From: an uncultured SAR86 cluster bacterium
Lineage (GTDB): Bacteria > Pseudomonadota > Gammaproteobacteria > Magnimaribacterales > AG-339-G14
Direction: 5' to 3'
Assembly: GCA_902542145.1 (NCBI GenBank)
Contig: CACBTL010000005.1
Span: forward strand, 5,735 to 69,734
DNA: 64,000 bases
Made by a program: the position numbers and the translations under genes. Of this stretch, positions 37,627-55,437 are shown in pieces (position 1 is the first letter of the stretch; each line of letters opens with the position of its first letter). A model generated the notes under the pieces. It did no database searches, was not told the DNA's origin, and was given only the letters and a program-made list of their open reading frames with translations.

Positions 37627-37653
37627 TAAACTCAAAACAAAAAGGGGAATGTT

Positions 37654-40600
37654 ATGAGTGTTAGAAATTTATCTACGTCCTTTCTTGTCCTGACGTTAAT
37701 TTTTACTGGTATAGCCTTTTCTCAAGACAGCGGTCTTGAAGAAGTAACAGTCACAGCGCAAAGACAGGAACAAAGTCTTCAAGACATACCATTAGCTGTA
37801 TCAGCTCTTACTGAAGACGATTTATTTGATCAACAAATTGAAGGTCCCAGCGATCTGCAATTAACTGTACCTAGCTTGAGGTTTGGATCTGACCAATTCT
37901 CTGGTGGAGGTGGTTTCGAAATCAGGGGGGTTACTAACCTTGCTGTTTCTGCGACTGCTGATGCCGGTGTAGCAACTCACGTTAACGATTTAGCTATTGG
38001 ATCTACTACTCTGCAAGATGGTAACTTCTTTGATATGCAAAGAATTGAGGTCATAAGAGGACCTGCTGGAACTTTATTTGGACAAAATTCCGTAGGTGGT
38101 GCCTTGAACTTTATCACCGCTAAAGGTGATACTTCAGGTTTCTACGGTAATGTTAGAGCAGATGTTGGCGATTACGGCAGATTAGGAACTACAGCGGTTT
38201 TTAACATTCCTTTAGATGACAAAGTTGCTTTGAGAATTGCAACGAATACTTTAGTTCAGGACGGCTTAATAGAAAATACTTATAAAGGTTCTGGTGGATT
38301 TCAAAATACAGACAATAGAAATCAATCAGCATATCGAATGACTTTAACCGTTGAAGCTACTGACAACACTACTATTAATGTTGTTCATCAAGGATCTATA
38401 GAAGATTCAAACAGAAACTTATTTGCTGGTACATGGTGTGATCGAGATCCATCGCTCGTTGTCGGTTGTACCCCAGTTGAAGTCCAGAATCAAAAATTTG
38501 AAATTACTCATCCAATGGGTACTTTTGTTGAAAACCTTCTTGTTGCTATGGGAGTGCTTGATTTTACTCCTGTGACAGATATGAGTGGTGCTCCACAAGA
38601 ATTCTGGCAAGTTAATCAAAGAGGAGCTCCTCTTTATCAAGTTGATGAGTACCTCACTCAGCTTATTATTGAGCATAAAATTAATGATGACTTAAGCTTA
38701 ACTGCAGCTGCATCAAGAAAAGATAGAAAATTTTTAAGACAAAGTTCTTATGCATCCCCAACTCTGCAAGCTTTAAGATTTAAAGACACTCCTGCATCTC
38801 CTGGTGGGTTAGTTGTGATGTCTGGTTACAGTCCTGGCAGAGATGGAGGTTTTGCTTCAAATCCTGCAGGATGTGACGATGTCACCGCTGGTTTATATGG
38901 TTTATATGGTGGATGTGTATTAGATACTCTTAGTTATCCAACTGGATTTGACCATTCAAACGCACTGGCTGATACCGATAGTGTCGAAATGAAAATTTCA
39001 TCCGATTACGATGGCAATCATAATTTCTTAATTGGTTTAAATTACACAGATACTTTTTCTGATAATCACTACGATGTTGGAGCTACAGGATTGGATGCAT
39101 TGGCGTATAAACCTCCTTCACTCTATGTAGGACCAACCAACGCAGCTTTGGGTATCCAACTTTATCCATCTCTTTATAGAACAGATTCATTGAATACAAT
39201 TACTTCCTCATCTATTTTTGGAGAGTATTATTTTCAAGCAAGAGAAGATTTAAGATTAACCTTTGGTCTTAGGTACAACGAAGATTATAAAGAAAGTTTA
39301 TCTAGACAGGCTTTTGTAAACGTCGCTGGATATGCTCCTGGAGCAATTTCTGATGGTGCTGCTGCAGCAATAGTTGGTGAATTACCATCTTCTGCTCAAA
39401 CTGATCCGTTGATTGCCGGAATGGCACAAACTGTTGCAGGTCAACAAGCAGGATTACTTCCTGCTGGTGCTGCTGCTGCTTTATGGGAAAGCGTATTTTG
39501 TCCTTCTAACGGCGGATTCTGTGCATTAGCTGGCTCTATACCTGACTACGGTGAAGTTTATAGAACTACAACAGGATTTGATCCTGAAATGGAATTTAGC
39601 TCAACTACCGGTAGATTTGTAGTTGATTATTTCATCAACGATGATTCCATGATGTATGCCTCTATTTCTAAAGGATTTAAAGGTGGGGGTATTAACCCTG
39701 CGGTTGATCCTATAGTTTTCCCTAACGTTCCTCTTGCATTCCCAGAAACAAATGTCTGGAACGTTGAAATTGGATTCAAAAACGAATTTCCTGATGCTGG
39801 CGTAAGATTTAACGCAGCTGTATTTGCATCTCAATTCGATGGATATCACGTAACAAAAATTATTAAGAAAACATCTCTTAACGAAGGTGTTGACGTAGAT
39901 ATTATGGGTGCTGAGTTTGATTTACTATACGTACCACCCTCAGTTCCTGGTTTAAGCGTAAATGCTAGTTTAAGTTTTACTCAATCAACTATTGCTGATG
40001 GCGAATCTGCTCTTGACCCGCATAACCACGATCTTCAACTTACAGGTGGTGGCAAAGATTGGCATTTAATGAAAGATGTTGAATCTGAGTTCTTTATTGT
40101 CAAGAAAGAGGCTCTAGCAGCTATATGGAATTCTTGGTTAACAGAAACTGTAACTGGTGGTGCCGCTACTACTCCTTTAGATGGAATTGTTGCAGCTTCT
40201 GCTGGAACTGTTTCAACTGAAGATCTTATGGCCGGATTAATTCCAGCTGAATTTCACGGTGACAGAACATTAGGTCAACCGACTCCAGTGAGTTACTTAG
40301 TTCCTGCTTTAGGACTTACACCTGCAGAAGGACACTTACCATCATTAGCGGATAGAAGTGCACTTGGAACGATGGCTCAACTTCATGGATTTAATTTGAA
40401 TCCAGCTGCGCCAGATATACAAGATGGTCTTGATTCTGATTTGTCTGGAAACCAATTAGTTCACCCAGACGTAATGGCAAATGTTGGACTTGGTTATGAA
40501 CTTGATGCTGGACCTGTAATGGTTAACTTTAGATTGGACTATTATTATCAAGGTTCTAGATACGTTCGTATCTTCAATCTTCCAAGTGATAAGTTAGATC

Positions 40601-40797
40601 CATGGAACGAACTTTCAGCTCAGATCACAGTTACTCCATCTGATAAAGCTTGGTTTGTTTCATTCTATGGTCAAAATATTACCGATGAAGAAAACATTGA
40701 CTTTATGGGTCTAGGAAGTTCAGCTGTTGGTAATACAAGAGGAATTGCTGCAAGAGAAAGAGCTCGTTACGGAGTTAGAGCTGGATACAATTTCTAA
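37654..40797 (+). CDS. TonB-dependent receptor 2
   Basis: Signal peptide, LEEVTVTAQR, RIEVIRGPAGTLFG, C-terminal YNF. Confidence 0.95.
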   Translation: MSVRNLSTSFLVLTLIFTGIAFSQDSGLEEVTVTAQRQEQSLQDIPLAVSALTEDDLFDQQIEGPSDLQLTVPSLRFGSDQFSGGGGFEIRGVTNLAVSATADAGVATHVNDLAIGSTTLQDGNFFDMQRIEVIRGPAGTLFGQNSVGGALNFITAKGDTSGFYGNVRADVGDYGRLGTTAVFNIPLDDKVALRIATNTLVQDGLIENTYKGSGGFQNTDNRNQSAYRMTLTVEATDNTTINVVHQGSIEDSNRNLFAGTWCDRDPSLVVGCTPVEVQNQKFEITHPMGTFVENLLVAMGVLDFTPVTDMSGAPQEFWQVNQRGAPLYQVDEYLTQLIIEHKINDDLSLTAAASRKDRKFLRQSSYASPTLQALRFKDTPASPGGLVVMSGYSPGRDGGFASNPAGCDDVTAGLYGLYGGCVLDTLSYPTGFDHSNALADTDSVEMKISSDYDGNHNFLIGLNYTDTFSDNHYDVGATGLDALAYKPPSLYVGPTNAALGIQLYPSLYRTDSLNTITSSSIFGEYYFQAREDLRLTFGLRYNEDYKESLSRQAFVNVAGYAPGAISDGAAAAIVGELPSSAQTDPLIAGMAQTVAGQQAGLLPAGAAAALWESVFCPSNGGFCALAGSIPDYGEVYRTTTGFDPEMEFSSTTGRFVVDYFINDDSMMYASISKGFKGGGINPAVDPIVFPNVPLAFPETNVWNVEIGFKNEFPDAGVRFNAAVFASQFDGYHVTKIIKKTSLNEGVDVDIMGAEFDLLYVPPSVPGLSVNASLSFTQSTIADGESALDPHNHDLQLTGGGKDWHLMKDVESEFFIVKKEALAAIWNSWLTETVTGGAATTPLDGIVAASAGTVSTEDLMAGLIPAEFHGDRTLGQPTPVSYLVPALGLTPAEGHLPSLADRSALGTMAQLHGFNLNPAAPDIQDGLDSDLSGNQLVHPDVMANVGLGYELDAGPVMVNFRLDYYYQGSRYVRIFNLPSDKLDPWNELSAQITVTPSDKAWFVSFYGQNITDEENIDFMGLGSSAVGNTRGIAARERARYGVRAGYNF

Positions 40798-40814
40798 AGC
40801 AAAACTTAACCTAC

Positions 40815-40844
40815 AAAAAACCCTGCTTAATTGCAGGGTTTTTT
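40815..40844 (+). terminator. Intrinsic terminator
   Basis: AAAAAACCCTGC-TTAATT-GCAGGGTTTTTT. Confidence 0.9.
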
Positions 40845-41011
40845 CTTTTATTTGAAGGCTTAGCTATACAATATAATTGTTTTTGAATTCACAAAGTTTT
40901 TCTTGACTATAAGGTAAATTATAAAAATCAAATAAAAAAATATTTAACTTTTTCAGTAATTAGGTTAGATTAGCTGTAGTTAAATTGATTTAAATAAACA
41001 AGGGAGTGTTT

Positions 41012-44000
41012 ATGTTAAACTTCACGTCTAAAAGCTTTGTTTTATTAGCTTTATTTTCATTCAGTCCAGTATACTTTTCTCAAGACAGCGGTTCTTCGTT
41101 GGAAGAAGTAATAGTTACAGCACAAAGGCAAGCCCAAAGCCTTCAAGATGTCCCATTGGCAGTGTCTTCTTTATCAAATAAAGATTTACTTGAACAACAA
41201 ATAGAAACACCAGGAGATTTAGCACTTACGGTGCCTTCATTAAGATTTTCCGGCTCAAGATTTGGGGGCGCAGGAGGTTTTGAAATTAGAGGGATTACAA
41301 ATTTAGCAACTTCTACAACTGCTGATGCCGGTGTAGCTGTTCATATAAATGATTTAGCTATTGGTGTTGGAGCGCTTCAAAGTAACAGGATCATGGATAT
41401 GAGTCGTGTTGAGGTAATTAGAGGACCTGCGGGTACACTTTTCGGTGCTAGTGCTGTTGGTGGTTCGATAAACTTCATAACAAATAAAGCAGAAGTAGAT
41501 AGTTTTTATGGAAGCACGAAAATTGATTTGGGAGATTACGGCAGGCTTGGCACAGATACTGTTTTTAATATTCCTTTAGATGATTCTGTTGCCCTAAGAA
41601 TTGCAGCTTCCACCTTAAAACAAGACGGTTTAATTGAAAATATTTATAAAGATGGTTTCCAAGATTTGGATAATAGAAATGATAGATCATATCGAGCAAC
41701 TTTAACTTTTGAAGCTTCAGACGCTACAACGATTCATTTAATTCACGATGTTTACGATGAGGATTCAAATAGAAATGTTTTTGTTGGTCGTTATTGTGTT
41801 CAAGCAGCATCTATGATTGATGGATGTTTGAGGGTAAACATAGAAGACCAGAAATTTGAAGTTCCTCACCCTCAAGGAACCTTAACACCTAACTTACTTT
41901 TACTTGCAGGAGTAGACAATCCTACTACATCAAGTGATCTTTCTGGGGTGCCCCAAGAATGGTGGCAGGCTAACGAGAGAGGTACTCCAATTTACGATGC
42001 TGAGATCGAAACAACTCAATTATTGATTGAGCATGAATTAGAAGATATGACTGTTAACATTGGAATACAAAGAAGATTGAGGGATTTCCTAAGAAGAAGT
42101 TCTTATGCTTCTCCAGATTTAGTTAAAGAAAGATTTAATGTAACTCCTGTTACCCCAGGAGGACTTGTTCAGATGTCCGGATACGGTCCTGGATGTGATT
42201 TACTAAGCGGTACTCAAGGTGTTACTGGTGGATGTATAGCAGACACCATAAATTACGATACCTCATACGATAACAATTATTCTTACGATCAAGTTGACGT
42301 AATTGAATTTAAGTTGGTGTCGGACTTTGACGGACAACATAACTTTTTATTCGGAGCTAATTATGCAGATACATTTGTTGATTCAAGTTATGAGGTAATT
42401 GCACCTGGACTTGATGTTTTGGCTCTGCAAACCCCAGCTGCTTTCTTACCTTTAGCAGCGCAACCTTTGGCTGCTGTTGGTATTCAAGCGTATCCTGGAA
42501 ACTTCAATACTATTACAAACACAAGCATTGAGAACCAATCTGTTTTTGGAGAATATTACTTTCAAGCAAGAGATGATTTAAGATTCACTTTTGGATTGAG
42601 ATATTCTGAAGATAAAAAGGCTGCTCCACAAGGAGTTTACTTCCTTAATGTGCTTGGTTTCAGGCAAGGAGTTATATCAGATGCGCAGGCTGCAGCCGTA
42701 ACAGATGGCGCCGTCCCAACGGCAGCTGCTTGGGAAGCTACATTCTGTCCAGACGTTGGTAACTTCTGTCCTGTAGCTGGAGCTCTTCCTACTATTGGTT
42801 CAGATTACGCAGCATTAGGTTTACCAAGTGAAGTTGATTTTGCTGCATTTACAGGAAGATTCGTAATTGATTATTTTATAAATGAAGATTCAATGATGTA
42901 CGTTTCATTAAATAAAGGTTTCAAAGGAGGAGGAATTAACCCTGCGATAGATCCAGCTGTCTTTCCAGACACTCCTCTTGCTTTTCCTGAGTCAGATGTT
43001 ATTGGCTTTGAAATAGGTTTCAAAAATGAATTTCCTGATCAAGGCGTAAGGTTTAATGTTTCAGCATTCTACAATGCCTTTGAAAATTATCATGTCACCA
43101 AGTTAGTAAATAGGGTTGCCTTAAATGAAGGTTTAGATGTGGACATCATGGGTCTGGAAGCAGATTTATTGTATGTACCTCCATCAGTTCCAGAATTCTC
43201 ATTAAATGCCAACTTCTCTTATATCTCTTCAGAGATAGCTGATGGTACTTCACAAATTAATCCTGTAAACAAGGATTTACAATTAACGGGTGGAGGCGCT
43301 TTATGGCACCAAGTTATGGATGCTCAAAGTAATAGGTTTATTATTACTAAGGAAGCTATGGGTGCTATTTATTCTTCTTGGCTAGCTGAAGCAACTACTC
43401 TAGGGCAAGCAGTAACTCCATTAGATGGAATTGTAGCTCTAACTGGTGGTGCCACACAGACAGCAGCTTTATTGGCTAACATTATTCCAATAGAGTTTCA
43501 CGGAGATAGATCATATGGAGCACAAACACCAGTTAGCTATTTTGCGCCAGCATTAGGAGTTTTACCTTCAGCAGGTCATCTACCTTCTATTGTTGGAACA
43601 AGAAGCACTCTGCAGGTGATGGCGCAACTTCATGGATATGATCTTGTTGATGGAACAGATATAAAGGACGGCCTAGAGCAGGATATTTCTGGAAATCAAC
43701 TGACACATCCTGATTTGACAGCTTCAGTTGGTGCGGCTTATTTACTAGATGCTGGACCAATTAATGTTAATTTCAGATTAGATTATTATTACAGAGGAGA
43801 AAGATATATTTCTCAATTTAATTTACCTAGCGATAAGTTGAGTGGTTGGGATGAAATAAATGCTCAAATAACTCTTGCACCATCTGATAATGCCTGGTTT
43901 GTTCAGTTTTATGGGCAAAACATAACTGATGAGCAAAACTTAGAATTTTTGAATATTAGTGATCAAAATGAAGGTTATGTAAATACTATAATTGGAAGAG

Positions 44001-44041
44001 AAAGAGCTAGATACGGAATACGTGCTGGTTACAATTTCTAA
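41012..44041 (+). CDS. TonB-dependent receptor 3 (paralog of receptor 2)
   Basis: ATG 41012 follows SD AGGGAG; LEEVIVTAQR, RVEVIRGPAGTLFG, C-terminal ERARYGIRAGYNF nearly identical to receptor 2. Confidence 0.95.
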   Translation: MLNFTSKSFVLLALFSFSPVYFSQDSGSSLEEVIVTAQRQAQSLQDVPLAVSSLSNKDLLEQQIETPGDLALTVPSLRFSGSRFGGAGGFEIRGITNLATSTTADAGVAVHINDLAIGVGALQSNRIMDMSRVEVIRGPAGTLFGASAVGGSINFITNKAEVDSFYGSTKIDLGDYGRLGTDTVFNIPLDDSVALRIAASTLKQDGLIENIYKDGFQDLDNRNDRSYRATLTFEASDATTIHLIHDVYDEDSNRNVFVGRYCVQAASMIDGCLRVNIEDQKFEVPHPQGTLTPNLLLLAGVDNPTTSSDLSGVPQEWWQANERGTPIYDAEIETTQLLIEHELEDMTVNIGIQRRLRDFLRRSSYASPDLVKERFNVTPVTPGGLVQMSGYGPGCDLLSGTQGVTGGCIADTINYDTSYDNNYSYDQVDVIEFKLVSDFDGQHNFLFGANYADTFVDSSYEVIAPGLDVLALQTPAAFLPLAAQPLAAVGIQAYPGNFNTITNTSIENQSVFGEYYFQARDDLRFTFGLRYSEDKKAAPQGVYFLNVLGFRQGVISDAQAAAVTDGAVPTAAAWEATFCPDVGNFCPVAGALPTIGSDYAALGLPSEVDFAAFTGRFVIDYFINEDSMMYVSLNKGFKGGGINPAIDPAVFPDTPLAFPESDVIGFEIGFKNEFPDQGVRFNVSAFYNAFENYHVTKLVNRVALNEGLDVDIMGLEADLLYVPPSVPEFSLNANFSYISSEIADGTSQINPVNKDLQLTGGGALWHQVMDAQSNRFIITKEAMGAIYSSWLAEATTLGQAVTPLDGIVALTGGATQTAALLANIIPIEFHGDRSYGAQTPVSYFAPALGVLPSAGHLPSIVGTRSTLQVMAQLHGYDLVDGTDIKDGLEQDISGNQLTHPDLTASVGAAYLLDAGPINVNFRLDYYYRGERYISQFNLPSDKLSGWDEINAQITLAPSDNAWFVQFYGQNITDEQNLEFLNISDQNEGYVNTIIGRERARYGIRAGYNF

Positions 44042-44055
44042 AATAAAGTAGCATT

Positions 44056-44088
44056 AAAAAAAACCCCACTTTAATGTGGGGTTTTTTT
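44056..44088 (+). terminator. Intrinsic terminator
   Basis: AAAAAAAACCCCAC-TTTAAT-GTGGGGTTTTTTT. Confidence 0.9.
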
Positions 44089-44124
44089 ATAATAAACGAT
44101 CAGATATTGAATAATTCCATTTAC

Positions 44125-45135
44125 ATGAAAATTTTAAACAACATCTCTGGAATATTAATTCTTTTAAATATTGCTGACCAAATATTATCTTCAAGCAGTT
44201 TAATACCAGAAAATATTTATTTTAATATCTTCGTTATTGCCTCTTATTGTTTTTTCGTTTTTGAATTTGTCTGCAGAATAATCTTTGAGAGAAAATTCTC
44301 TTTTTTATTGTTACTCGATTTAATTGTATTAATCAATTACATTTTCCTGGGATTCTATGATTTAAGAATATTAAGAATCTTCAGGGTGTATTCGATTTAT
44401 AGCAATCATAAGATGTTGCTTCCTACAAACACTTTGTTAAGGACCGTATATAACCAACGTTTAGCGTTATTAGGGTCTCAGATAATGGTTTTTTCTGTTC
44501 TGTTGATTTTTTCTACTTTAATTCACTTTATTGAAAGGGATATAAACCCTGAATACTTTGGATCCATTCTTAACTCAATGTGGTTTGGAATAGCTACCTT
44601 AACAACAGTAGGATATGGGGATGTAACTCCTTCATCTCCTTTAGGTCAAGTTTTAACATCTTTAACGATGTTTTTAGGTATAGGAATGTTTGCATTACCT
44701 GCAGCAATCTTAGCTTCAGCTTATTATGAGGAAATTCAAAAAAGAAACTTTCTTATCACGATGGAAACAATTTCAAGTATTCCATTATTCTCTATGTTGC
44801 CAATAGGTGCTTTAAGTAAAATTAATGATAAGTTGGTTGCGGAAATTTATCCTGCTAAAAGAAAAATTATTGAAAAAGGTGATGAGGCAGATTGCATGTA
44901 TATTATTGAGTTTGGTTCGGTGCAAGTTGAAATTGAATCACCTGTGACCTTGGGACAGGGTGATTATTTTGGTGAAAAAGGAATACTATCTAAAGATGTT
45001 CGAAATGCCTCGATAAGCTCCTTAGAAGAAGTTAAATTACTTTCGCTATCTAAAGAAGCTTTGGAAGAATTAATGGAAGAGTATCCACATCTCTTTGAAG
45101 AACTTGAAAAGGTAAGTTTAGATAGAACCGGTTAA
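44125..45135 (+). CDS. Cyclic-nucleotide-gated potassium channel (MloK1-like)
   Basis: Start moved to ATG 44125 because 44074 lies in the terminator; S4 LRILRIFR, filter TTVGYGD, CNBD with FGE...R.AS phosphate-binding cassette. Confidence 0.9.
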   Translation: MKILNNISGILILLNIADQILSSSSLIPENIYFNIFVIASYCFFVFEFVCRIIFERKFSFLLLLDLIVLINYIFLGFYDLRILRIFRVYSIYSNHKMLLPTNTLLRTVYNQRLALLGSQIMVFSVLLIFSTLIHFIERDINPEYFGSILNSMWFGIATLTTVGYGDVTPSSPLGQVLTSLTMFLGIGMFALPAAILASAYYEEIQKRNFLITMETISSIPLFSMLPIGALSKINDKLVAEIYPAKRKIIEKGDEADCMYIIEFGSVQVEIESPVTLGQGDYFGEKGILSKDVRNASISSLEEVKLLSLSKEALEELMEEYPHLFEELEKVSLDRTG

Positions 45136-45884
45136 TTAAACGAATAAGAAAATTTTGTACTCAGACCTTGATCATCTTCAACAGCATTTAATATAGGTTC
45201 TGAATCGTAAGCAATATCGTACTGCAGACTGATACTAAATTTTTCATTAACTTTAAAATTAAAAGCCATTAAGAAACTTGTTTTGTAATCGTTAAAATCT
45301 AATATATCGGGCTGATAATAAATAGTTGTATTGAAGTTAACGTTTTCAGCGATTTCAAAATTATCATGAAAATAAAGAGAGAATCTTGTTGCATCAGTGA
45401 TTGAATCTTCTAAATCAGTTTCCTCTTCATAAATAACGCCTGCTCCAAATCTCATTTGATCATCTATGATCGTTCTTAGACCGGTACCAAATAAGTTTCT
45501 CTCTCTGAATAACCTAAAAGGATTTTTAGCGGACTGGATAAAGAATTCAGTATGGTATTGATTGTATGTTTCAAAGACAGATCTTATATGAATGAGTTGC
45601 GATATATCTGTGACGTTTTGATTAATTTTCCTTTCAGACTTTCTTAGAATCATGAAATTCTCGACATCATCAAGATTGTAGTCAAATCTTAGATCAAAAG
45701 AATAGAAATCTCTGTCTCTATTTCCTCTAGAGGCATTTAAAGAAAAACCAAGACCGGCAAAAAAACCTTCTTTACCCTCGTTTCTTAACTCTTCTATGTT
45801 CACAATAGTCTGAGAAATAGCTATTGACGGCAAAAATAGTGCAATAAAGAGGAGTTTACTTAGTTGTTGCAACATATGCTCCAT
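45132..45884 (-). CDS. DUF481-like outer-membrane beta-barrel protein
   Basis: Signal peptide then IVNIE, G...ASRGN, amphipathic strands, YYQP, YDSEP, C-terminal FSYSFN. Confidence 0.75.
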   Translation of the reverse strand: MEHMLQQLSKLLFIALFLPSIAISQTIVNIEELRNEGKEGFFAGLGFSLNASRGNRDRDFYSFDLRFDYNLDDVENFMILRKSERKINQNVTDISQLIHIRSVFETYNQYHTEFFIQSAKNPFRLFRERNLFGTGLRTIIDDQMRFGAGVIYEEETDLEDSITDATRFSLYFHDNFEIAENVNFNTTIYYQPDILDFNDYKTSFLMAFNFKVNEKFSISLQYDIAYDSEPILNAVEDDQGLSTKFSYSFN

Positions 45885-48039
45885 TCCAATTTGGATCAGC
45901 TAAATTAAGCTTCATGTCTTTAATTCTGTCTTTAAAAATAGCGTAGTATAAATCAAACTCTGTAACTTGTTGCTCCCATTTCTCAATAAAATTTAAAGCT
46001 ATATCCCATTTTTGATTTCTGTAATTATTAAGAAATTCTTCATGATCTTTACTGAACTCGGATAATTTTCCATCTTTCAAAGAGAATTTATCAAAAGAAG
46101 TATAAATTTTTACAGGTTCATTTTTTCCTTTCACTTGAATTAGATCTAATTCGAAAAGATTTGTATTTGATTTAAGACCATTCACTGTTTCTTGTCCAAG
46201 AATCCTCTGAAATCCATAAGTTCCAGATTGACCTTCTAATCTTGAAGCTAGGTTTACAGGGTCACCTAAGACCGTGTAATCAAACCTTTTTTCTGAACCC
46301 ATATTTCCAACAATACATTCACCGGTATTGATTCCGATACCAATTTTTAGTTCCATTCCTTTTTGTTTTTCAAATTCAATATTAAATTCCTTTAACGCTT
46401 TTTCCATATCAAAAGAAGCTTTTAAAGCTAAATCGGTATGATTGTCTTGATCTGTGGGTGCATTCCAAAAGGCCATAATGCAATCTCCCATATATTTATC
46501 AATCGTGCCTGCGTTATCTAAAATTTCATTTGATAGTACTGTAAGGAGGTTATTTATAAGTTCCGTTAGCTCTTCAGGGTTGGATTTATAACTTTCTGAT
46601 ATGGCTGTAAATCCTCTGATATCAGAAAATAGAAAGGTCATATTCTTCTTCTCTCCACCAAGCTTCAGCGACTCGCTTGATTCAGCAAGTCTAGAAACCA
46701 TTTCCGGGGCTAAATATTGAGAGAATGCCGTTCTAACCTTACTTCTTTCTAATTCAGTAAAAAGAAAATTAAAGAAAGTGATTATTAAGTAACTTGTTAA
46801 GCATATTATTAAAGGAGAAATAGGATCTATTAAATAATCTAATTCGTTGAAACCATAGAAAGAACCATAAAGGCTGCTTAAATTTGCTACTAAAAATGTT
46901 ATCAAGCCTCCGATAGGACCAAAATATTGAATGATTAAGCAAATCAAAATAGAAAAAAGTAAGCCAAATAAAAACTCTGCTCCTTCCATCCAATCTGGTC
47001 TAACTAAAAAATCTCCATTTATAATTTGTTGAATTCCTTGAGCAATGATCGTGACACCAGGTATATCGTTCTCAAGAGACGTATTTCTAATATCTAGCAG
47101 TCCTGACGCACTTGTGCCTACAAGGACAATCTTTCCTGCAAAGAATTCTTTATCGTAAGCATTATTTATGACTTCAAAAGCTGGAATAATGTTCAAATTT
47201 TTTTTAAATGTTGAATGTAGCCAGAGGTAACCGTTTGAATTAGTTGGAATTATTACGTTTCCAAGTTTTACGTTGTTGATACCAGTACTTTCACCAAATG
47301 CTAACTCTCCTGATGCATTAGACGACTTGATTTGATACGTGCTTGCTCCTATCGCAACCCTTAAGGTTTCCAGCATCAAAGATGGTACTATCTGTCCATT
47401 CACTACTTCAAATGTTGGCAGGCTTCTGACAATGCTTGAATTTCCTCCAATACTCATAGACCCAACTCCAGCAGAAGAATCAATTAAAGTGGGTAAATTG
47501 TTTTGCATGCCCGTGTATTTAGGAAGAAATTCTTTTGGTGAGTCACCTTGTATTATTAGGCCGTATTTAGGTGATATATCTTCAGTTATTAATTTATTAT
47601 TTGGTGCACTTCCCAGAACAACAGTAGAGTGTGATTCCATAGACTCTGCAAAAACTCTGTCATTTGGTTTTATTTTTTTTAACTCTTTAATAAGATCAGA
47701 ATTTGCTGAATATTGCTCAGAAAGAACGTCACTTCCAGTTCTATCTCTTTCAGCAAAAACGATATCAAATGATGTAGTGAGAGCCTGCTCTGTATTAGTA
47801 ACTAATCTAGATAATAGATCTCTAGACCATGGCCATTGACCTAGATTATTTAGCGACTGATCATCAATATCAATTATTACAACGGGATCATCTTCTAACT
47901 TATCCCTTGGGCTTATTTGTTGCAAAGTATCGAAAGCAAACAATCTTAAATCATTAAAAATATTTAATGGATTCGCTAAAGGAATTAACGCTATTAAAAT
48001 AGCTAAAGGTAGAAGTAATTTTTTATAAATGTTCTTCAT
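45856..48039 (-). CDS. CHASE2-sensor class III adenylate cyclase
   Basis: VVIIDIDD.SL..LGQWPWSR, FDIVFAE (CHASE2); 3 TM; FSDIRGFT, DKYMGD, RFDYTVLGDPVNLASRLE with Lys/Asp ATP-specificity residues. Confidence 0.95.
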   Translation of the reverse strand: MKNIYKKLLLPLAILIALIPLANPLNIFNDLRLFAFDTLQQISPRDKLEDDPVVIIDIDDQSLNNLGQWPWSRDLLSRLVTNTEQALTTSFDIVFAERDRTGSDVLSEQYSANSDLIKELKKIKPNDRVFAESMESHSTVVLGSAPNNKLITEDISPKYGLIIQGDSPKEFLPKYTGMQNNLPTLIDSSAGVGSMSIGGNSSIVRSLPTFEVVNGQIVPSLMLETLRVAIGASTYQIKSSNASGELAFGESTGINNVKLGNVIIPTNSNGYLWLHSTFKKNLNIIPAFEVINNAYDKEFFAGKIVLVGTSASGLLDIRNTSLENDIPGVTIIAQGIQQIINGDFLVRPDWMEGAEFLFGLLFSILICLIIQYFGPIGGLITFLVANLSSLYGSFYGFNELDYLIDPISPLIICLTSYLIITFFNFLFTELERSKVRTAFSQYLAPEMVSRLAESSESLKLGGEKKNMTFLFSDIRGFTAISESYKSNPEELTELINNLLTVLSNEILDNAGTIDKYMGDCIMAFWNAPTDQDNHTDLALKASFDMEKALKEFNIEFEKQKGMELKIGIGINTGECIVGNMGSEKRFDYTVLGDPVNLASRLEGQSGTYGFQRILGQETVNGLKSNTNLFELDLIQVKGKNEPVKIYTSFDKFSLKDGKLSEFSKDHEEFLNNYRNQKWDIALNFIEKWEQQVTEFDLYYAIFKDRIKDMKLNLADPNWNGAYVATTK

Positions 48040-48076
48040 TTTCTTTAAATAAAACCTTTATAATTGACGCCTTGTC

Positions 48077-49399
48077 ATGTTTGTTAGATATATTTTATTA
48101 CTATTTATCTATTGTTTCGGTGTTTTTGTATTAGCGCAAAACGTACCACCGACTATATCGGATCCTGAGCAATTAGAAACCATTAGAAAAGAAAGGCAAG
48201 CTATTTTTGATGAATTAATAGAGGATCCAACTAATCAAGGTAATTTATTTAAATACGCCAACCTATCAATTATTTTAGGAGATTTAGAGGCTGCGATAGG
48301 GGTTTTTGAACAAATGCTAATTTACGATCCTACTCTGGCAAGAATCAGGCTAGAACTAGGAGTGCTTTATTTCAGGCTAGAAGCTTACGCTCCAGCAAAA
48401 CTATACCTTAATAGTGTAAAAGACTATGATCCACCTCAGGAAGTTATTACAAAAGTTGAATCCTTTTTGGCAGCTATCGAAGAACAGGAAAAACCACTGA
48501 CAGTTAATCAATTGATGACTTTTGGACTTGCTAGCTCTACAAATGCCAACGCCGGTATAGATGCCGATATTATAGAAATTGCTGGTTTTCCTCTTGAGGT
48601 TTCTCCTGATTCAAAACCGCAATCTGATTCAAAATTTTCTGTCAATTACAATTTATCTTTGACTCAAAATTTGAATAACCCTCGCGGTGATGCAATTAAT
48701 TATTTTCTTGCAGTTGCAACCACCTATCAATCTAGATTTACACAATTTGATCAAAGAAGTTTTGTTTTTGGTTTAAATAGTAGATTAGATGTAGAGGAGG
48801 GTAGTTTAGGAGTACTAAAAAATCCATCGGTAACTCCAAGTTTTACGAGAATTCAAGTTTACTTACAAGGAGAGCCCCTGCTTGAATCTAATGCTTTCAG
48901 CGTGAGTCACTCCGGATCTTTATCGAACGGTTCTGTTTTTGAATATGGTTTTAACGTAGATAAAAGAAATTTTATTGGGTTAGACGCAAAGAGCGGTTAT
49001 CGATACGGAACCTTTGTAAATAATACCTTTAATCTTTCGAATAATAACTCCAGTTGGACTATGAATATTTTCTCAGATAAATACGAAGCCAATCAAAAAT
49101 TTGAGTCTTTTAGACAATGGGGTTTTGGTTTTAATTATAGAATGCCTCTCCCAGATGCATGGGTTATGGCTACAAATTATGATTGGTCTACTAAAAACTA
49201 TCTTGCTCCTAATGGTCCTCTTGGAACAAGAAAAGACATTAACGAATCATCAGATTTAACCTTTTCAAGACTTTATATAAATTGTTTGTCTATGAATATT
49301 TTTCTAAAACCGTTTGATAATAGAAGCAGCATTGATATATTTTCAAGAAGTAACACTGATGTAGGTGTGAACCTTTCTTATCTCTGCTTAAATAACTAA
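48077..49399 (+). CDS. TPR + outer-membrane beta-barrel protein (DUF560/SLAM-like)
   Basis: Signal peptide; TPR helices (AIGVFEQML..DP...RIRLELG.LY); S.TNAN barrel start; amphipathic strands. Confidence 0.65.
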   Translation: MFVRYILLLFIYCFGVFVLAQNVPPTISDPEQLETIRKERQAIFDELIEDPTNQGNLFKYANLSIILGDLEAAIGVFEQMLIYDPTLARIRLELGVLYFRLEAYAPAKLYLNSVKDYDPPQEVITKVESFLAAIEEQEKPLTVNQLMTFGLASSTNANAGIDADIIEIAGFPLEVSPDSKPQSDSKFSVNYNLSLTQNLNNPRGDAINYFLAVATTYQSRFTQFDQRSFVFGLNSRLDVEEGSLGVLKNPSVTPSFTRIQVYLQGEPLLESNAFSVSHSGSLSNGSVFEYGFNVDKRNFIGLDAKSGYRYGTFVNNTFNLSNNNSSWTMNIFSDKYEANQKFESFRQWGFGFNYRMPLPDAWVMATNYDWSTKNYLAPNGPLGTRKDINESSDLTFSRLYINCLSMNIFLKPFDNRSSIDIFSRSNTDVGVNLSYLCLNN

Positions 49400-49431
49400 A
49401 CTTAAATTTTACTTGAGTATATAATCCGCTG

Positions 49432-50157
49432 ATGAATCAAATAATTCAATTTTTCTTAAAGATTAGAAATAGTAGTTTTTTTAATGGAATCGTAATTTTT
49501 GTAATCATAGGATCTGCTATTTATGCAGGAGTAAGCTCTTACGATCTATCAGATGACTACGTTGGAATTTTAAATTTCTTAGATACTGCAATCACAGTTT
49601 TCTTTTTGATAGAGATAATAATAAGAATTGTCGCAGAGAGATCTTTAATTAAATTTTTCCAAAGTGGATGGAACATATTTGATTTCATAATTGTCACAGT
49701 CAGCTTAATTCCTATTACTGGAGGAGAAACAGCCTTTGTAGCAAGGTTGCTTAGAATAGTAAGAGTATTAAGAATTATCACAGTCGTTCCTGCCTTAAAG
49801 AAAATTGTAGATGCCTTATTTGAGACTCTTCCAAGAGTAGGTTTTGTTGCACTTCTAATGTTCATTTTTATATACATATGGGCTGCTATAGGTACATTAG
49901 TTTTCGGGACCACAGATCCAGAGCATTGGGGCAATATTGGCCTTGCAATGCTCACTCTTGCACAGGTTGCTACTTACGATGATTGGGCAGCGGTTATGAA
50001 AGATATTATTGAGGTGTTTCCTTGGGTATGGATTTATTTCATTAGTTTCATTCTACTTAACGCTGTAATAATGCTGAATATGGTAATAGGTATCATTGTT
50101 GATGTTATGTCGAAGAAATCCAGCAGCGGTCAACTAAGCGCAGATGAGAATCAATAA
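49432..50157 (+). CDS. BacNav-family 6TM voltage-gated cation channel, filter TYDDWA
   Basis: F.IEIIIR (S2), FF.SGWNIFDFIIV (S3), RLLRIVRVLR (S4), LNMVIGIIVD (S6); TATAAT 6 nt before the ATG. Confidence 0.92.
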   Translation: MNQIIQFFLKIRNSSFFNGIVIFVIIGSAIYAGVSSYDLSDDYVGILNFLDTAITVFFLIEIIIRIVAERSLIKFFQSGWNIFDFIIVTVSLIPITGGETAFVARLLRIVRVLRIITVVPALKKIVDALFETLPRVGFVALLMFIFIYIWAAIGTLVFGTTDPEHWGNIGLAMLTLAQVATYDDWAAVMKDIIEVFPWVWIYFISFILLNAVIMLNMVIGIIVDVMSKKSSSGQLSADENQ

Positions 50158-50386
50158 TTATTTGGTTCTTTTAATATCTCTAACTTTACTTTCTTGCACA
50201 TACGAAAAAGTTGTAAAAAACTCTATGTATGATTTGGATGAGTTTGATGCTTGTTATTTAGATCACAAATCATCTTTAGATGAAGATAAACAAAAATACC
50301 TTGATATGCTTATAAAGCTCAGAAAATACAATTGCACTCGCTACTATGAACTTTTTGTTAGAGGAACAATAATTCAGGGTTACTAG
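50144..50386 (+). CDS. Small hypothetical lipoprotein
   Basis: Lipobox LLSC; overlaps the channel 3' end by 14 nt; fills the gap to a convergent gene. Confidence 0.6.
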   Translation: MRINNYLVLLISLTLLSCTYEKVVKNSMYDLDEFDACYLDHKSSLDEDKQKYLDMLIKLRKYNCTRYYELFVRGTIIQGY

Positions 50387-52155
50387 AACCAGAAAATCAG
50401 CAGCAATGGAGTTGATATTGCAATGATAAGTAGCTCCAAAGGTAAACCAAGTTTCCAATAGTCTCCAAATTTATAATTACCAGGCCCCATCACTAAAGTA
50501 TTACATTGATGACCTATTGGTGAAAGAAAAGCACAGCTTGCACCAATGGCAACGCACATCAAGAAAGGTTCAGTAGGGTAGCCTAACTGATTAGCTATGG
50601 TTACTGATATTGGTCCCATGATAACTGCTGTAGCTGCATTATTAATGACATCGGATAAACACATGGTTGCAACCATTAAAATAATTAAAGTGCCTACTAA
50701 ACCAAATTGAATCGATTGAGTAGCTATAGCAGATGCAAGAATATTAGTCAGACCACTGTTATACAATGCATCGCCTATTGGGATCATGGCTCCAAGTAAT
50801 ACAATAACAGGCCATTCAATGTGCCTATACAGCATGTTTGGCTTTAATAACTTAGAGGCAACAAAAGCTAAAACACACAGCAAAAATGCTATAACAACAT
50901 TTAAAAAATTTGTGATAACAAGGAGTAAGCTAAATGAAAATAAACCTAGCGACAAAAGAATTTTAGAGTCATCTTTTATCACATCTAGCTCTCTTTGCCA
51001 CAAAGGCATTAGGCCTAGATCCTGCATTTTTTGGCTTGTATCTTTTTGCTCTTCCCTCGTTGCAATTAATAATACATCTCCAGATTTGAAGTGCTCGTTT
51101 GATAAACTTCCTTGAAAATTTGTTCCTTTTCTCCAAAGCCCTAAAATAGCCATTTGTCTTCCTGCCATTGTAGAAAAATAGTCTATAGTTCTTCCTATCA
51201 ATCTAGAGCCAGGAGAAATCATAGTTTCAATTTCACCAAAACTTCCTGAATCTAGATCTTTTATTTCAGTTCTAAGGGATAGTCCATATTTTTCTTGGAG
51301 ACTAGACACTTCTTCAGGATTAATTTTTAAAAGCAATATTTGTGATTCTTTTAATACATCAAAATTACTTAATATTTCTCTAGCATCTGAGGACTCATTT
51401 ACAGACCCGATAAGAACGATGTCAGATCCTAACTCTTTCCTAAACTCTTGGGTTCTTTTACCAATAAGTTCACTATCTTTATTTATTACTAATTCCACTA
51501 AATATTCATTAATATCTACTAAAGAGGAAGAGTCATTTTCTCCAGATCTATTTTTTACAAGAATGAATCCTAATAATGCTATGAAAACCAAACCACCAAT
51601 GCTTACAGGTAATCCTGCATAGGCAAAATCAAAGAATTCAAAGCCTTGATCGGAATATTGATCTCTAAATTCGGAAATAATAATATTTGGTGGCGTTCCT
51701 ATTTTAGTATTCATTCCACCTAAAATTGATGCAAAAGCAAGAGGCATTAAAAATTTAGAAGGGGACCAGCTCATTTTTTGGCATATTCCTAAGGTAACCG
51801 GTAGAAGCATTGCCATAGCTCCAATATTGTTCATAAATGAAGACAGTACAACTGCTATTCCCATCAAGATCACAAGAAATTGAAATTCACTACTGGCAAT
51901 TTTTTGAAGAAGGCTGCCAATTTTTCCTATCAATCCTGAAGCTTCTAAGCCCTTACTTATTAATAATACAAGTGCAACAGTTATCACAGCTGGATGGCCA
52001 AATCCAACGAATGCTTCTTTTGCAGGCACAAATCCAAGCACTACTAAAACCGCTAAACTTGTAAGCGCAACTGCATCATAGCGATATCTTCCCCATATAA
52101 ACATTCCCACCATTACAAAAAGTATGGCTGAAAGTAAGATTTGATTGGTATCCAT
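50383..52155 (-). CDS. SLC13/CitMHS-type permease with TrkA-C domains
   Basis: RYD.VAL, FGHPAV, FMNN, IGTPPNII, central soluble RCK_C-like region, INN.AT, PIGHQCN.LVMGPGNYKF.DY. Confidence 0.9.
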   Translation of the reverse strand: MDTNQILLSAILFVMVGMFIWGRYRYDAVALTSLAVLVVLGFVPAKEAFVGFGHPAVITVALVLLISKGLEASGLIGKIGSLLQKIASSEFQFLVILMGIAVVLSSFMNNIGAMAMLLPVTLGICQKMSWSPSKFLMPLAFASILGGMNTKIGTPPNIIISEFRDQYSDQGFEFFDFAYAGLPVSIGGLVFIALLGFILVKNRSGENDSSSLVDINEYLVELVINKDSELIGKRTQEFRKELGSDIVLIGSVNESSDAREILSNFDVLKESQILLLKINPEEVSSLQEKYGLSLRTEIKDLDSGSFGEIETMISPGSRLIGRTIDYFSTMAGRQMAILGLWRKGTNFQGSLSNEHFKSGDVLLIATREEQKDTSQKMQDLGLMPLWQRELDVIKDDSKILLSLGLFSFSLLLVITNFLNVVIAFLLCVLAFVASKLLKPNMLYRHIEWPVIVLLGAMIPIGDALYNSGLTNILASAIATQSIQFGLVGTLIILMVATMCLSDVINNAATAVIMGPISVTIANQLGYPTEPFLMCVAIGASCAFLSPIGHQCNTLVMGPGNYKFGDYWKLGLPLELLIIAISTPLLLIFWF

Positions 52156-52383: not shown

Positions 52384-52860
52384 ATGAAGACAATAAACAT
52401 GAAAAAATTTAACAAAGTACTGATCCTTCCTTTGTTACTATTTGTATTAGCCAATTGTGCTGGTACTAACGTTACTACTTATTCTTCTGCGTCAATAATG
52501 CTAGATGATTTTATCGAGCAAAATGGAGGAAAAGGAGCAGTAAATGACGAGACAATACATTATCCTTTAGATATTCAAACTTTATCTTGTTCTGAAATGC
52601 AGGCAAATAGAATCAGAATTTCTAATTTAATTAACAATCTATCTGAAAGAGTTATCGAGAACTCAAATAGAAGCACTAGCTACTCTACTTATGGCTTAAC
52701 AAAGCACGATCCTTTGATTGGGACTAGTTTTATTGGTGTCAGTTCAGTTGGGTTAAATCCTGAAGTTACTGAATTCAGAAAGCTTAAATTAGTACTAGAA
52801 GAGCTCAATACAACTTCTATCCTCAAGTGTACTCCACCTGAGGTAATGAGAACTCCGTAA
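52384..52860 (+). CDS. Hypothetical lipoprotein
   Basis: Lipobox LANC; mature Cys pair (LSC.E ... KC); start could be 52399. Confidence 0.7.
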   Translation: MKTINMKKFNKVLILPLLLFVLANCAGTNVTTYSSASIMLDDFIEQNGGKGAVNDETIHYPLDIQTLSCSEMQANRIRISNLINNLSERVIENSNRSTSYSTYGLTKHDPLIGTSFIGVSSVGLNPEVTEFRKLKLVLEELNTTSILKCTPPEVMRTP

Positions 52861-53867: not shown

Positions 53868-54575
53868 TTATCTTCTCGGCCAAGCTTTAACTGGGATTAT
53901 TAAGGAAGTATTTAATACTTCTCTCATCCCTTTAACTTTTCTCGAAAATTTTTCAAAAGCTTTTGAAGATGTTTGTTCCGTAGCTCCATCAGTTAAAGTT
54001 ACAAAATCAGATGCTCCGATATAAACAAAATGAGTAAATTCATCATTACCATATAGCACTCTGTTTAGCCCATATGAGCTTGTAACTGAACCTGATTCAA
54101 CATTAGATTCCATTAGTTCTGACCAAGCCTCGGCGTACTCTTCTTCGTTTTCTAAGTTCATTCTCATATCATATTTAGTGAATGCACCGTCAACAGTCCA
54201 ATCATTGGCTTCAAAGATAGGAATAATCGCTAAGTTTGATACAGGGCTTGCGGAACTCAATATTGTTCCAAGCATAGTAGCGGCTTCAGGACAACTTTGC
54301 GTTAGTGCTCCTGCTTCTTGGAAGTCTTCCATAGTCATGTAAGAGGCAATAATAAAGTGTGTAGAGTCACTTGCTCCATTTAGCGTTTCTGACATCAATC
54401 CTAAGTCGCCTGGAAATTTCTTACCGCAATCAGATGCATGAAACTTATCCAAAGCGGAAACTACACCAACTGGATTCGTTACATTCATGTGATAAAAGAC
54501 ATGCATTGCATGCCTTTCACTTTGTGCAAAGATAAATCCAGATGATATAGAAATTAATAATAATAATTTTTTCAT
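53868..54575 (-). CDS. Secreted hypothetical protein, paralog family member 1
   Basis: Start moved to ATG 54575 (SD AGGAG); signal peptide; two internal repeats each with TH; Cys pair. Confidence 0.8.
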   Translation of the reverse strand: MKKLLLLISISSGFIFAQSERHAMHVFYHMNVTNPVGVVSALDKFHASDCGKKFPGDLGLMSETLNGASDSTHFIIASYMTMEDFQEAGALTQSCPEAATMLGTILSSASPVSNLAIIPIFEANDWTVDGAFTKYDMRMNLENEEEYAEAWSELMESNVESGSVTSSYGLNRVLYGNDEFTHFVYIGASDFVTLTDGATEQTSSKAFEKFSRKVKGMREVLNTSLIIPVKAWPRR

Positions 54576-54679
54576 AATTTCTCCTATATTAATGTTACCA
54601 ATATATATCAATCTGATTACTAAATTGAATCATAATCAAAAATTTTTCGAAGATATCACACAGATTATTTCATTAAGAT

Positions 54680-54713
54680 AAAAAAAAGAGAGACTATGGC
54701 CTCTCTTTTTTTT
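54680..54713 (-). terminator. Intrinsic terminator
   Basis: Minus strand GAGAGG-loop-TCTCTC (one G-U) followed by a U-run. Confidence 0.85.
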
Positions 54714-54722
54714 AATTAAATT

Positions 54723-55418
54723 TTAATTAGGCATATAGTCTTTTACAATAGTTACTAAATTAGTCCCAATAATTTCTCTCACTTTACCTGCTTTTGAAGA
54801 AAACTTCTGCATAGACTTTGTAGGAACTCTCTCTTGAAATACTTCCATTGCTGAATCCATATCTGGATATCCACAAAATGCCATGTGAGTTCCATAGCTA
54901 TCAACTCTTGATCCCGGTCCCCACGCAGCTAATCCCCACGAACCTGGGCAGCGACTATCTTCACTGTTCATCAGATCAGAATAAGCTTTTACGTAAGCAG
55001 ATGGATCTGATACGTTCATGATCCAAGAGACAAATACTGTATCCTTAAGTGTGTCACCACCGCTAACTACTGGAAAGGCTAGCATTTCATACGTCGAATT
55101 TGATATTTCAGACATAGTTTGAAAGTATTTAGTCCATCCAGGACAGGAAGCCCATTGACCGCTCCACTGCAAATAAGACTCATTATTTTCGAATAAGACT
55201 GCGTAAGAGTGAGTAGTGACTTCATCTGCATTAAAGTTTTCAGCCATTAATCTAACTACAGCTGATCCTCCAGGACACTCTTGTGAAAGCTTATCTGTAG
55301 CTGATAAAACTCCTAAAGGATTATTTGTCTCTATTCCGAAAAAGCCAAAGAAAGGACCATCAGCTGCCCAAACATTGGATAAACTAAAAAAAAGTGTAAA
55401 ACATAATATTTTTTTCAT
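54723..55418 (-). CDS. Secreted hypothetical protein, paralog family member 2
   Basis: Signal peptide; TTH and GTH repeats; two mature Cys pairs; SD GGAG. Confidence 0.8.
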   Translation of the reverse strand: MKKILCFTLFFSLSNVWAADGPFFGFFGIETNNPLGVLSATDKLSQECPGGSAVVRLMAENFNADEVTTHSYAVLFENNESYLQWSGQWASCPGWTKYFQTMSEISNSTYEMLAFPVVSGGDTLKDTVFVSWIMNVSDPSAYVKAYSDLMNSEDSRCPGSWGLAAWGPGSRVDSYGTHMAFCGYPDMDSAMEVFQERVPTKSMQKFSSKAGKVREIIGTNLVTIVKDYMPN

Positions 55419-55437
55419 TTTTTATTCTCCAATTAAA

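Follow-up and report, generated by a model that had tools for sequence, protein, structure and literature searches.

Pathways leading from the bacterial outer membrane to cyclic AMP (cAMP) have been described in S. meliloti, where NsrA, a beta-barrel protein of the outer membrane, and the CHASE2-domain cyclases CyaK, CyaD1 and CyaD2 turn an external cue into cAMP that is received by Clr (PMC7529298, PMC13001267, PMC5498481; these and the other papers cited below were available in part, and statements about them refer to those parts). In the Burkholderia BiofilmReg operon, a LysM-FecR protein is encoded together with a CHASE2 histidine kinase (PMC5192318). Slam or type 11 secretion systems (DUF560, PF04575), whose cargo includes TbpB, fHbp, HpuA and hemophilin, are recognized by a genomic signature in which a cargo with a C-terminal 8-stranded barrel is encoded beside a protein with TPR repeats and a 14-stranded barrel (PMC8406197; bioRxiv 10.1101/2024.09.26.615229). 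Bacterial cyclic-nucleotide-gated (CNG) K+ channels serve as structural models for the CNG and HCN channels, and neither a natural signalling partner of this group nor a physiological partner of its member MloK1 (Mll3241 of Mesorhizobium loti) was found in the literature searched. Here we analyze a locus in a 64,000-nucleotide stretch of the genome of an uncultured SAR86 cluster bacterium (hereafter the window; the genome is denoted G000) that encodes, in close succession, a CHASE2 cyclase, an MloK1-type K+ channel and a Slam-like outer-membrane barrel, accompanied in relatives by a giant FecR-cadherin protein. With moderate confidence, we read it as an NsrA/CyaK-like relay from the surface to cAMP that employs a type-11-like pair and has K+ flux, instead of a CRP regulon, as its output; the half of this relay that connects the cyclase to the K+ channel is, taken alone, very likely. 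No paper describing a cyclase-K+ channel pairing was found, in a search outside of which most subscription papers fall.

The core of the locus, hereafter the module, consists of the cyclase, the barrel, the giant protein and the K+ channel, which are lost together. Three of these genes lie in the window (lengths in amino acids, aa):

44125..45135, plus strand: MloK1-type cyclic-nucleotide-modulated K+ channel, 336 aa, core (Pfam Ion_trans/Ion_trans_2 and cNMP_binding)
45856..48039, minus strand: CHASE2 class III nucleotide cyclase, 727 aa, core (PF05226, E 1.2e-41; PF00211, E 7.1e-22)
48077..49399, plus strand: Slam/type-11-secretion-like outer-membrane protein, 440 aa, core (Pfam TPR and a predicted 14-stranded barrel)

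The cyclase gene is the only PF00211 match in G000, and its product combines a periplasmic CHASE2 domain, membrane helices and a class III catalytic domain. An earlier note on this DNA had described a CHASE2 class III cyclase with ATP-type specificity residues, with which both Pfam and the residues K515 and D587 agree. We take these two to be the ATP-type pair, and together with D473/D519 and N596/R600 they presumably cover the metal, ATP-specificity and transition-state roles. The motifs are unchanged, and the K/D pair is of the ATP type, in all 24 cyclase rows compared; no examined copy has lost the CHASE2 domain. Judging by these residues, the enzyme is predicted to make cAMP. No Crp-type output was recognized, since HTH_Crp_2 matched nothing in five module genomes and none of the 33 module genomes has a second cyclic-nucleotide-binding domain (CNBD); a class I cyclase was likewise absent from the five.

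The best PDB match of the K+ channel is Mll3241/MloK1 (E 2e-42), to which it aligns without gaps over residues 104-336 (118-350 of Mll3241). Its start is placed at 44125 because the ATG of a longer open reading frame (44074) falls inside a terminator-like hairpin (44053-44092). As in MloK1, a channel of the six-transmembrane type is joined to its CNBD without a C-linker, and the phosphate-binding residues (G283-E284, R293) and the lid arginine (R334, the equivalent of MloK1 R348) are kept; unlike in MloK1, the S1-S4 segment is shorter and carries three invariant S4 arginines (R81, R84, R87), and the channel comes with a dedicated cyclase and the only CNBD of the genome. Across 100 distinct homologues, the core of the selectivity filter (TVGYGD, 161-166), G283, E284 and R293 never vary, and the lid arginine is present in the window copy and in 80 of the 100. 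The MloK1 CNBD binds a cAMP analogue with a Kd near 16 nM and needs R348 to do so (PMC5987880, PMC4076524). Throughout the 50 genomes of the family, every PF00027 match is the CNBD of the K+ channel itself, and in the order the K+ pore (PF07885) occurs in 34 of 155 genomes, in single copy and always in an MloK1-type channel, the other 121 genomes having no K+ pore match at all. The channel is thus the sole recognizable cAMP receptor of the module genomes, and its binding of cAMP is predicted.

The comparison comprised an order set of 155 genomes passing a completeness filter of 80%, plus G000 (970 kb, 78% complete, gammaproteobacterial according to the labels of its relatives, with a rhodopsin and without a flagellin match), and the family set of 50 genomes; below, G numbers denote genomes, g genera, f families and L loci. 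The module genomes are 78-96% complete, which limits absence counts, and since the genomes are related, the co-occurrence counts describe a pattern and were given no statistical test. Within the family, the cyclase was found in 30 genomes, the K+ channel in 28 and the BacNav-family channel discussed below in 30, all of them in genera g1 and g4, and none of the three occurred in the 17 genomes of genera g2 and g3. Across the order, PF00027 is present in 38 genomes and PF00211 in 35, with both in 33. In all 33 genomes the cyclase and the K+ channel lie on one contig, no more than 2.75 kb apart, with one CNBD and one cyclase match per genome, so that the co-occurrence check proposed in the earlier note came out in favor of the pair. 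Of the five genomes with a CNBD only, three have Crp/Fnr-type proteins and one an ABC transporter; the fifth, G131, has a Crp/Fnr protein and, on a contig of 2.6 kb, the K+ channel. In the two with a cyclase only, it is cut by the contig end (G047) or is an unrelated TPR cyclase (G127). Three small metagenome-assembled genomes (MAGs) labelled Woeseiaceae (label unchecked), out of five genomes reached from named loci, contain the same genes in a different order, again with one CNBD and one cyclase each. Among 80 metagenome loci of the K+ channel (kept from 121), 46 have the CHASE2 cyclase nearby, 19 show other neighbours on short flanks, two are uninformative and 13 belong to a nested clade considered below.

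Conserved synteny alone was rejected as proof of a functional tie, since an SLC13 transporter gene, an MscS gene and the BacNav gene are equally syntenic yet outlast the core, and the pattern of loss is more telling. Two genomes, G149 and G150, have flanks 98.5% and 91% identical to those of G151. A stretch of exactly 12.3 kb, running from the K+ channel into the giant gene, is missing from both, while the last 69 bp of the giant gene and an intact BacNav gene remain; this gap is a loss of the module. Genomes G066, G074, G075 and G076 have the order BacNav-MscS-SLC13, and G123 has BacNav-DUF481-MscS-SLC13; in all five, the K+ channel is gone on one flank of MscS and the cyclase block on the opposite flank, without remnants. 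Because both vanish around a retained MscS gene, the K+ channel appears to be tied to the cyclase beyond mere adjacency. Four independent losses in the module-less genomes of genus g8 were considered and ruled out by the conflicting grouping of MscS and its flanks, a sign of recombination. In G066 (L171, 8560-9723), the MscS allele is 75% identical at the DNA level to that of G070 and the flanks are about 90% identical; by sequence, G066 has apparently received a module-less haplotype by recombination.

The remaining half of the proposed relay concerns the barrel and the giant protein. The model of the barrel protein (pLDDT 86.8) comprises an N-terminal TPR region and 14 barrel strands, and its best folds are CymA (Z 21.9, root-mean-square deviation (rmsd) 3.7, 273 residues aligned) and OmpG (Z 19.2), with no Slam structure among the fold matches. 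Sequence searches of the PDB returned TPR matches only for the barrel and nothing for the C-terminus of the giant protein, and NCBIfam has no name for either. Eight distant relatives found with a profile of the orthologues pass the cut-off of SlipAM (PF04575), and an Atlas cluster in which 78% of the members have SlipAM was retrieved for the barrel with a score of 0.99 at rank 17. The giant protein, of 2,000-2,500 aa, consists of a signal peptide, a FecR-like domain, an acidic linker, cadherin repeats and a C-terminal barrel of the TbpB/NHBA type, and has no lipobox in any of 18 copies with an intact N-terminus. When the last 300 residues of the G011 copy were modelled (the first 105 of them poorly), the model matched NHBA-C with Z 17.4 and, over 139 residues, an rmsd of 2.2; all of the first 16 fold rows were of the TbpB/fHbp/LbpB/HpuA/hemophilin type; the Pfam family TbpB_B_D matched none of five giant C-termini. 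By its C-terminal fold, the giant is a candidate Slam/type 11 cargo that would be exported by the barrel. The earlier note had recorded the TPR-barrel protein, of which the TPR and the barrel stand, and had overlooked this cargo partner, the likely input of the system.

The distribution of the two genes follows that of the cyclase: the barrel was found in 35 of 155 genomes and the FecR protein in 27, both confined to the six genera that have the CHASE2 cyclase, and in well-assembled genomes neither is seen without it. Families f2 and f3 usually have the genes in the order K+ channel, (MscS), DUF481, cyclase, (TetR-like), TPR barrel, giant and BacNav, so that in these two families the giant gene directly follows the barrel gene. 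In genus g1 it lies elsewhere, often doubled, near uvrD; it was not found in G000, G019 and G036, and for G000 this is read as an assembly gap rather than a loss, because the neighbouring uvrD is missing as well. At L151, L154, L056-L057 and L161 the giant gene is often tandemly duplicated, with a conserved N-terminus and a divergent middle, as expected for a variable surface protein. A profile search for the barrel over 400 scored genomes of the class (one further genome was left unscored) gave 35 matches, G000 and one unpublished genome included, the latter contributing to no other result. Twenty of the 34 outside loci were inspected; in these distant gammaproteobacterial loci the barrel has a FecR neighbour in ten cases, a CHASE2 cyclase in six, another CNBD protein (CNBD-rhodanese, CNBD-protease or CNBD alone) in three and a TbpB-barrel neighbour in two, and the K+ channel in none of the 20. 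Since the CNBD partners differ among these loci, the trio of barrel, FecR protein and CHASE2 cyclase appears to be widespread with a varying cyclic-nucleotide effector, a slot that is filled here by the channel. At L291, L294, L297 and L305, Slam-like barrels adjoin PAS-HD phosphohydrolase genes, two of them with a C93 peptidase, presumably LapG-like, and two with TbpB-barrel neighbours; these loci are possibly a version of the export locus linked to cyclic di-GMP.

Taken together with the described systems, these observations suggest the following relay. The protein with TPR repeats and a 14-stranded barrel would act as a Slam/type 11 translocon exporting the giant protein, the surface part of which may bind a particle, a polymer or another cell. 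Its FecR-like N-terminus would report in the periplasm to the CHASE2 domain, as suggested by their recurrent co-location and by the analogy with NsrA/CyaK. The cyclase would then produce cAMP, which would bind and gate the MloK1-type channel, and the output would probably be a fast change of turgor or of the proton-motive force upon contact, with no transcriptional step; because the K+ channel is the only recognizable receptor, a cue at the cell surface probably acts on ion flow and not on genes. With K+ at about 10 mM outside and 200-300 mM inside, E_K lies near -80 mV; from a bacterial resting potential near -150 mV, opening a K+ channel would admit K+ and depolarize the cell. The BacNav channel might respond to such a change of voltage, although the relay does not require it.

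By analogy, the closest studied system is NsrA/CyaK of S. meliloti, with which the locus shares an outer-membrane barrel paired with an inner-membrane CHASE2 cyclase, and FecR- and TPR-domain genes are also found near the S. meliloti cyclases. The two differ, by description, in that NsrA is a single receptor of about 1,200 aa, whereas a 440-aa barrel and a separate giant FecR-cadherin gene are found here; in that Clr is of the Crp type, whereas here a K+ channel would be the receptor and the module genomes yielded no Crp-type regulator; and in the number of cyclases, 28 in S. meliloti and one per genome here. Slam/type 11 loci share with the relatives of the window a protein with TPR repeats and a 14-stranded barrel adjoining a gene for a TbpB-type barrel. 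In contrast to them, the cargo here has 2,000-2,500 aa, a FecR-like head and cadherin repeats and is devoid of a lipobox, a CHASE2 cyclase is encoded beside it, and secretion is predicted for a barrel that, in the window, stays below the PF04575 cut-off. Neither FecR nor adenylate cyclase is mentioned in the available main texts of PMC8406197 and bioRxiv 10.1101/2024.09.26.615229, the supplements of which could list such loci. The BiofilmReg operon also has a gene for a FecR-domain envelope protein beside a CHASE2 sensor and a surface-related phenotype; unlike here, its output is a kinase and a response regulator, and no Slam-like barrel or channel is described in PMC5192318 as available.

Such a relay would matter in several respects. 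This genome supplies for a CNG channel the missing signalling partner, in the form of one cyclase, one CNBD and one K+ pore that are gained and lost together, and for the same reason the circuit should be rebuildable from four genes. A candidate input can be named for CHASE2 domains, the cues of which are mostly unknown, and type 11 secretion acquires a candidate role in signalling. The locus further suggests that SAR86, an abundant marine group, senses surfaces or particles despite its genome streamlining.

Several observations weigh against this reading. The barrel of the window has no PF04575 match, and the family matches 8 of 52 barrel orthologues weakly, with a best E of 0.0017. In 20 of the 100 K+ channel homologues the lid position is not arginine (it is isoleucine in 17), and loss of the lid arginine of MloK1 weakens cAMP binding to about 25 uM (PMC4076524). 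The receptor search was a search for CNBD matches, which non-CNBD receptors would escape, and a CpdA-type phosphodiesterase was not recognized among nine scanned of 20 metallophosphoesterase matches, these nine being ApaH, LpxH-like, YfcE-family or unassigned proteins. Nested among the module copies is a sister clade of this channel (60-64% identity), which in the 13 metagenome loci noted above has neither a CHASE2 cyclase nor the other genes of the module nearby; in one of the 13, a TPR cyclase is encoded two genes away. Proteins with comparable identity carry the labels Rhodobacteraceae/Paracoccaceae, which suggests transfer between marine groups. The direction of change in g8 is not fixed: the MscS of G066 groups with that of G076 and its flanks with G070, and because these groupings conflict, the g8 losses are perhaps one or two haplotypes spread by recombination. 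The relatives on which the counts rest are non-independent, and in S. meliloti the FecR-domain gene beside cyaD1 is dispensable for the perception of the signal (PMC5498481). A complex prediction for CHASE2 and the FecR-like domain of G151, made with an alignment for each partner, returned no answer (score 0.00) and counts neither way. As a separate observation, the nested K+ channel clade lies on metagenome contigs L191-L205 in unrelated neighbourhoods of higher GC content.

The alternative that survives best extends the relay by one more channel, encoded downstream of the barrel:

49432..50157, plus strand: single-domain BacNav-family voltage-gated cation channel, 241 aa, an old neighbour outside the core (PF00520, E 4.5e-43)

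Its product has one six-transmembrane domain with four S4 arginines, the TxxxW-type filter TYDDWAA at 181-187 and a short C-terminus, and so resembles the single-domain channels of the family (4dxw, NavPp, CavMr, CaChBac/CavAb); this agrees with the BacNav assignment and the paired aspartates reported in the earlier note. The best single-domain PDB match is 4dxw (E 3.5e-61), which we take to be NavRh. In the extended cascade, cAMP would open the K+ channel, the voltage shift would open the TYDDWAA channel, and Ca2+ (or Na+) would enter as a second messenger, Ca2+ possibly feeding back on a Ca2+-binding cadherin adhesin. The association on which this relies is old: the BacNav gene is present in 28 of 33 module genomes, and in at least three of the five that lack it the contig breaks off within the repetitive giant gene or next to it. 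A position after the giant gene is seen in four genera of two other families, in genus g4, even though the cyclase is 156-170 kb away there, and in the Woeseiaceae-labelled MAGs. The T[YF]DDW channels form a monophyletic clade (100/99), and in a genome scan (80 loci kept from 342, some rows perhaps repeating genomes counted elsewhere) 11 of the 13 rows of this clade have the giant gene upstream, as against none of the 67 other relatives. The gene is 5'-truncated in the module-less G140, and module-less copies pooled over g8 have 44 unique changes against 21, PALP, TMEM164 and SLC13 staying flat. This rate signal, however, is significant in three of nine comparisons that are non-independent, is shared by MscS (112 against 78) and is confounded by recombination. 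Of the 13 module-less genomes examined, 12 keep the gene intact, G128 (96% complete) and G117 (91%) among them, and module-less copies nest among module-bearing ones in the tree. Altogether, 51 of 155 genomes have it, namely the 28 with the module, G047 and 22 without the cyclase (14 close ones and eight of distant types). Its distance from the cyclase is 170 kb in G035 and 156 kb in G037, both of genus g4. The linkage of this channel to the cyclase, which the earlier note had wanted checked, is therefore not a fixed one, and BacNav is an old neighbour of the giant gene that often outlives the module.

Nor does the filter point to Ca2+. Among the nearest outside relatives, 54 of 67 carry a TxEDWTD filter of the NavPp type, and NavPp prefers Na+ (PCa/PNa 0.3) and is blocked by Ca2+ despite its acidic filter, whereas the Ca2+ selectivity of CavMr (TLEGWVD) depends on Gly4 (PMC7041947, PMC8677417). 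TYDDWAA shares the aspartates at positions 3 and 4 with CaChBac (TLDDWAD) and lacks the Gly4 of CavMr; it has two of the three acidic positions of engineered CaChBac/CavAb (TLDDWAD/TLDDWSD), position 7 being Ala or Asn among the rows listed. Compared with the family members named above, the channel stands out by a natural filter with neither Asp7 nor Gly4 and by the lack of a C-terminal extension. The filter hence gives no sign of Ca2+ selectivity, and the label "Ca-type" given in the earlier note becomes tentative; in the nearest group, an acidic filter is no predictor of selectivity for Ca2+ (PMC7041947, PMC8677417). According to PMC8677417, no channel was known that combines the CavAb/CaChBac filter with a native origin and Ca2+ selectivity, and the natural TYDDW clade offers a test case for the selectivity rules derived from engineered filters. 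Elsewhere in the order (L177:3276-4055, L178:8207-9001, L061:7810-8520), BacNav lineages have the CavMr-like filter TLEGWPD, with Gly4, in G105 and G101, and in G090 a channel with the filter TMSSWEN lies directly upstream of a DUF481 gene.

The cascade was first suggested with an analogy to the cyclase/CNGK/CatSper logic of sperm, the sign of which appears to be wrong, since sea-urchin CNGK hyperpolarizes (PMC4749565) and K+ channel opening here would depolarize, although depolarization could in principle gate BacNav. No motility output is evident for it, flagellin being absent from five genomes in a profile search. We therefore consider the extended cascade unlikely, and equally doubtful its fullest form, a touch-to-electrical circuit running from a type-11-secreted cadherin adhesin through the CHASE2 cyclase, cAMP and the sole K+ channel to a Ca2+-permeable channel with the DD filter; if true, it would be a receptor-cyclase-CNG channel-Cav chain without a transcription factor, in non-flagellated ocean bacteria with a genome of about 1.2 Mb. 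What stands of the original interpretation is a dedicated cyclase with a periplasmic sensor paired with a K+ channel (33 of 155 genomes, the only CNBD), and what is left unsupported is the Ca2+ entry step, with its channel surviving without the cyclase and distant from it in g4, together with the sperm analogy.

A second alternative is purely permissive: basal cAMP would keep a high-affinity K+ channel active for K+ uptake, and the adhesin pair would be co-inherited within an ion-homeostasis locus (MscS, SLC13, DUF481, BacNav). Ion-transport genes do surround the module, basal cAMP could saturate the CNBD if its affinity is that of MloK1 (Kd near 16 nM, PMC5987880), and no dedicated phosphodiesterase emerged from the metallophosphoesterase matches scanned or from the HD-domain matches, none of which is linked to the locus. 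Yet the sensor domain is retained in all cyclase copies examined, the barrel and the giant do not occur apart from the cyclase in well-assembled genomes, the trio is met in distant genomes together with different CNBD proteins, and most of the order does without a K+ pore match, all of which makes this explanation improbable compared with the surface-to-K+ relay. It is most improbable that cAMP acts on a receptor unrecognized by Pfam, or that the messenger is cGMP, with the K+ channel travelling by synteny: TetR- or AraC-type genes adjoin the cyclase in several lineages and the channel clade also exists unlinked to the cyclase, but the TetR-type gene is missing from the window and several module loci, the channel disappears even where the intervening MscS stays, and both its phosphate-binding residues and the ATP-type pair of the cyclase are invariant.

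The locus also includes the following features:

44053..44092, no strand: terminator-like hairpin with flanking A and T runs (-19.2 kcal/mol, z -4.71, equalled by 0 of 200 shuffles), between an upstream TonB-dependent receptor gene and the K+ channel gene
45132..45884, minus strand: DUF481 outer-membrane protein, neighbour (PF04338, E 3.7e-14), on the strand of the cyclase and downstream of it
50144..50386, plus strand: probable lipoprotein of 80 aa, neighbour, with Cys after a hydrophobic N-terminus, found in loci of genus g1 only
50383..52155, minus strand: SLC13/CitMHS transporter with a TrkA-C domain, neighbour (Pfam)

As the earlier note had it, six intact open reading frames adjoin one another over 44125..50386, with successive gaps of -4, -29, +37, +32 and -14 nucleotides, and Pfam agrees with its domain calls (CNBD K+ channel, DUF481, CHASE2 cyclase, TPR, BacNav type); close spacing alone is weakly informative here because most genes in G000 abut. 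Calling the locus an island in the sense of a mobile element finds no support, since the 64-kb window has no tRNA gene and GC content shows no step across the locus. Purifying selection is evident for each of the seven genes tested, SLC13 among them (dN/dS 0.01-0.09 against G021; comparison with G011 is saturated for three of the seven). Promoter-like sites are not in excess (29 against 37 in shuffles). RNA-library contigs cover parts of the locus in all four runs compared, of 18 RNA runs listed, and one bridges the barrel, BacNav and lipoprotein genes; these contigs attest presence only, without strand or level, and their depths, being unsuited to ranking genes, were not used. DUF481 and the small lipoprotein are neighbours outside the core: the DUF481 gene is mostly lost alongside the module and is kept without it in G123, and the lipoprotein, with no Pfam or NCBIfam match, is conserved within g1. 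The SLC13 gene is syntenic with the module in three families and stays after its loss. In G037 and G038, module genes are frameshifted at many places, as are neighbouring genes, and errors of long-read assembly seem a likelier cause than decay.

Directly upstream of the K+ channel, three tandem genes for TonB-dependent receptors (1,011-1,047 aa) occupy 34351-44041; relatives in the genus have a carboxylesterase gene among these receptors, which the window lacks. A probable lipoprotein of 158 aa without a Pfam match (52384-52860) has homologues, 37-40% identical, that in g10 lie between the giant gene and BacNav and in the Woeseiaceae-labelled loci lie close to DUF481, so it perhaps belongs loosely to the locus. 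At 53868-56139 there follow three secreted paralogues in tandem (231-247 aa), also without a Pfam match and variable in copy number within the genus. Further downstream (57116-60259), a gene for a proteasome-type protease is divergent from genes for a circularly permuted ATP-grasp and an Alpha-E protein, which we take to form a peptide-tagging cluster.

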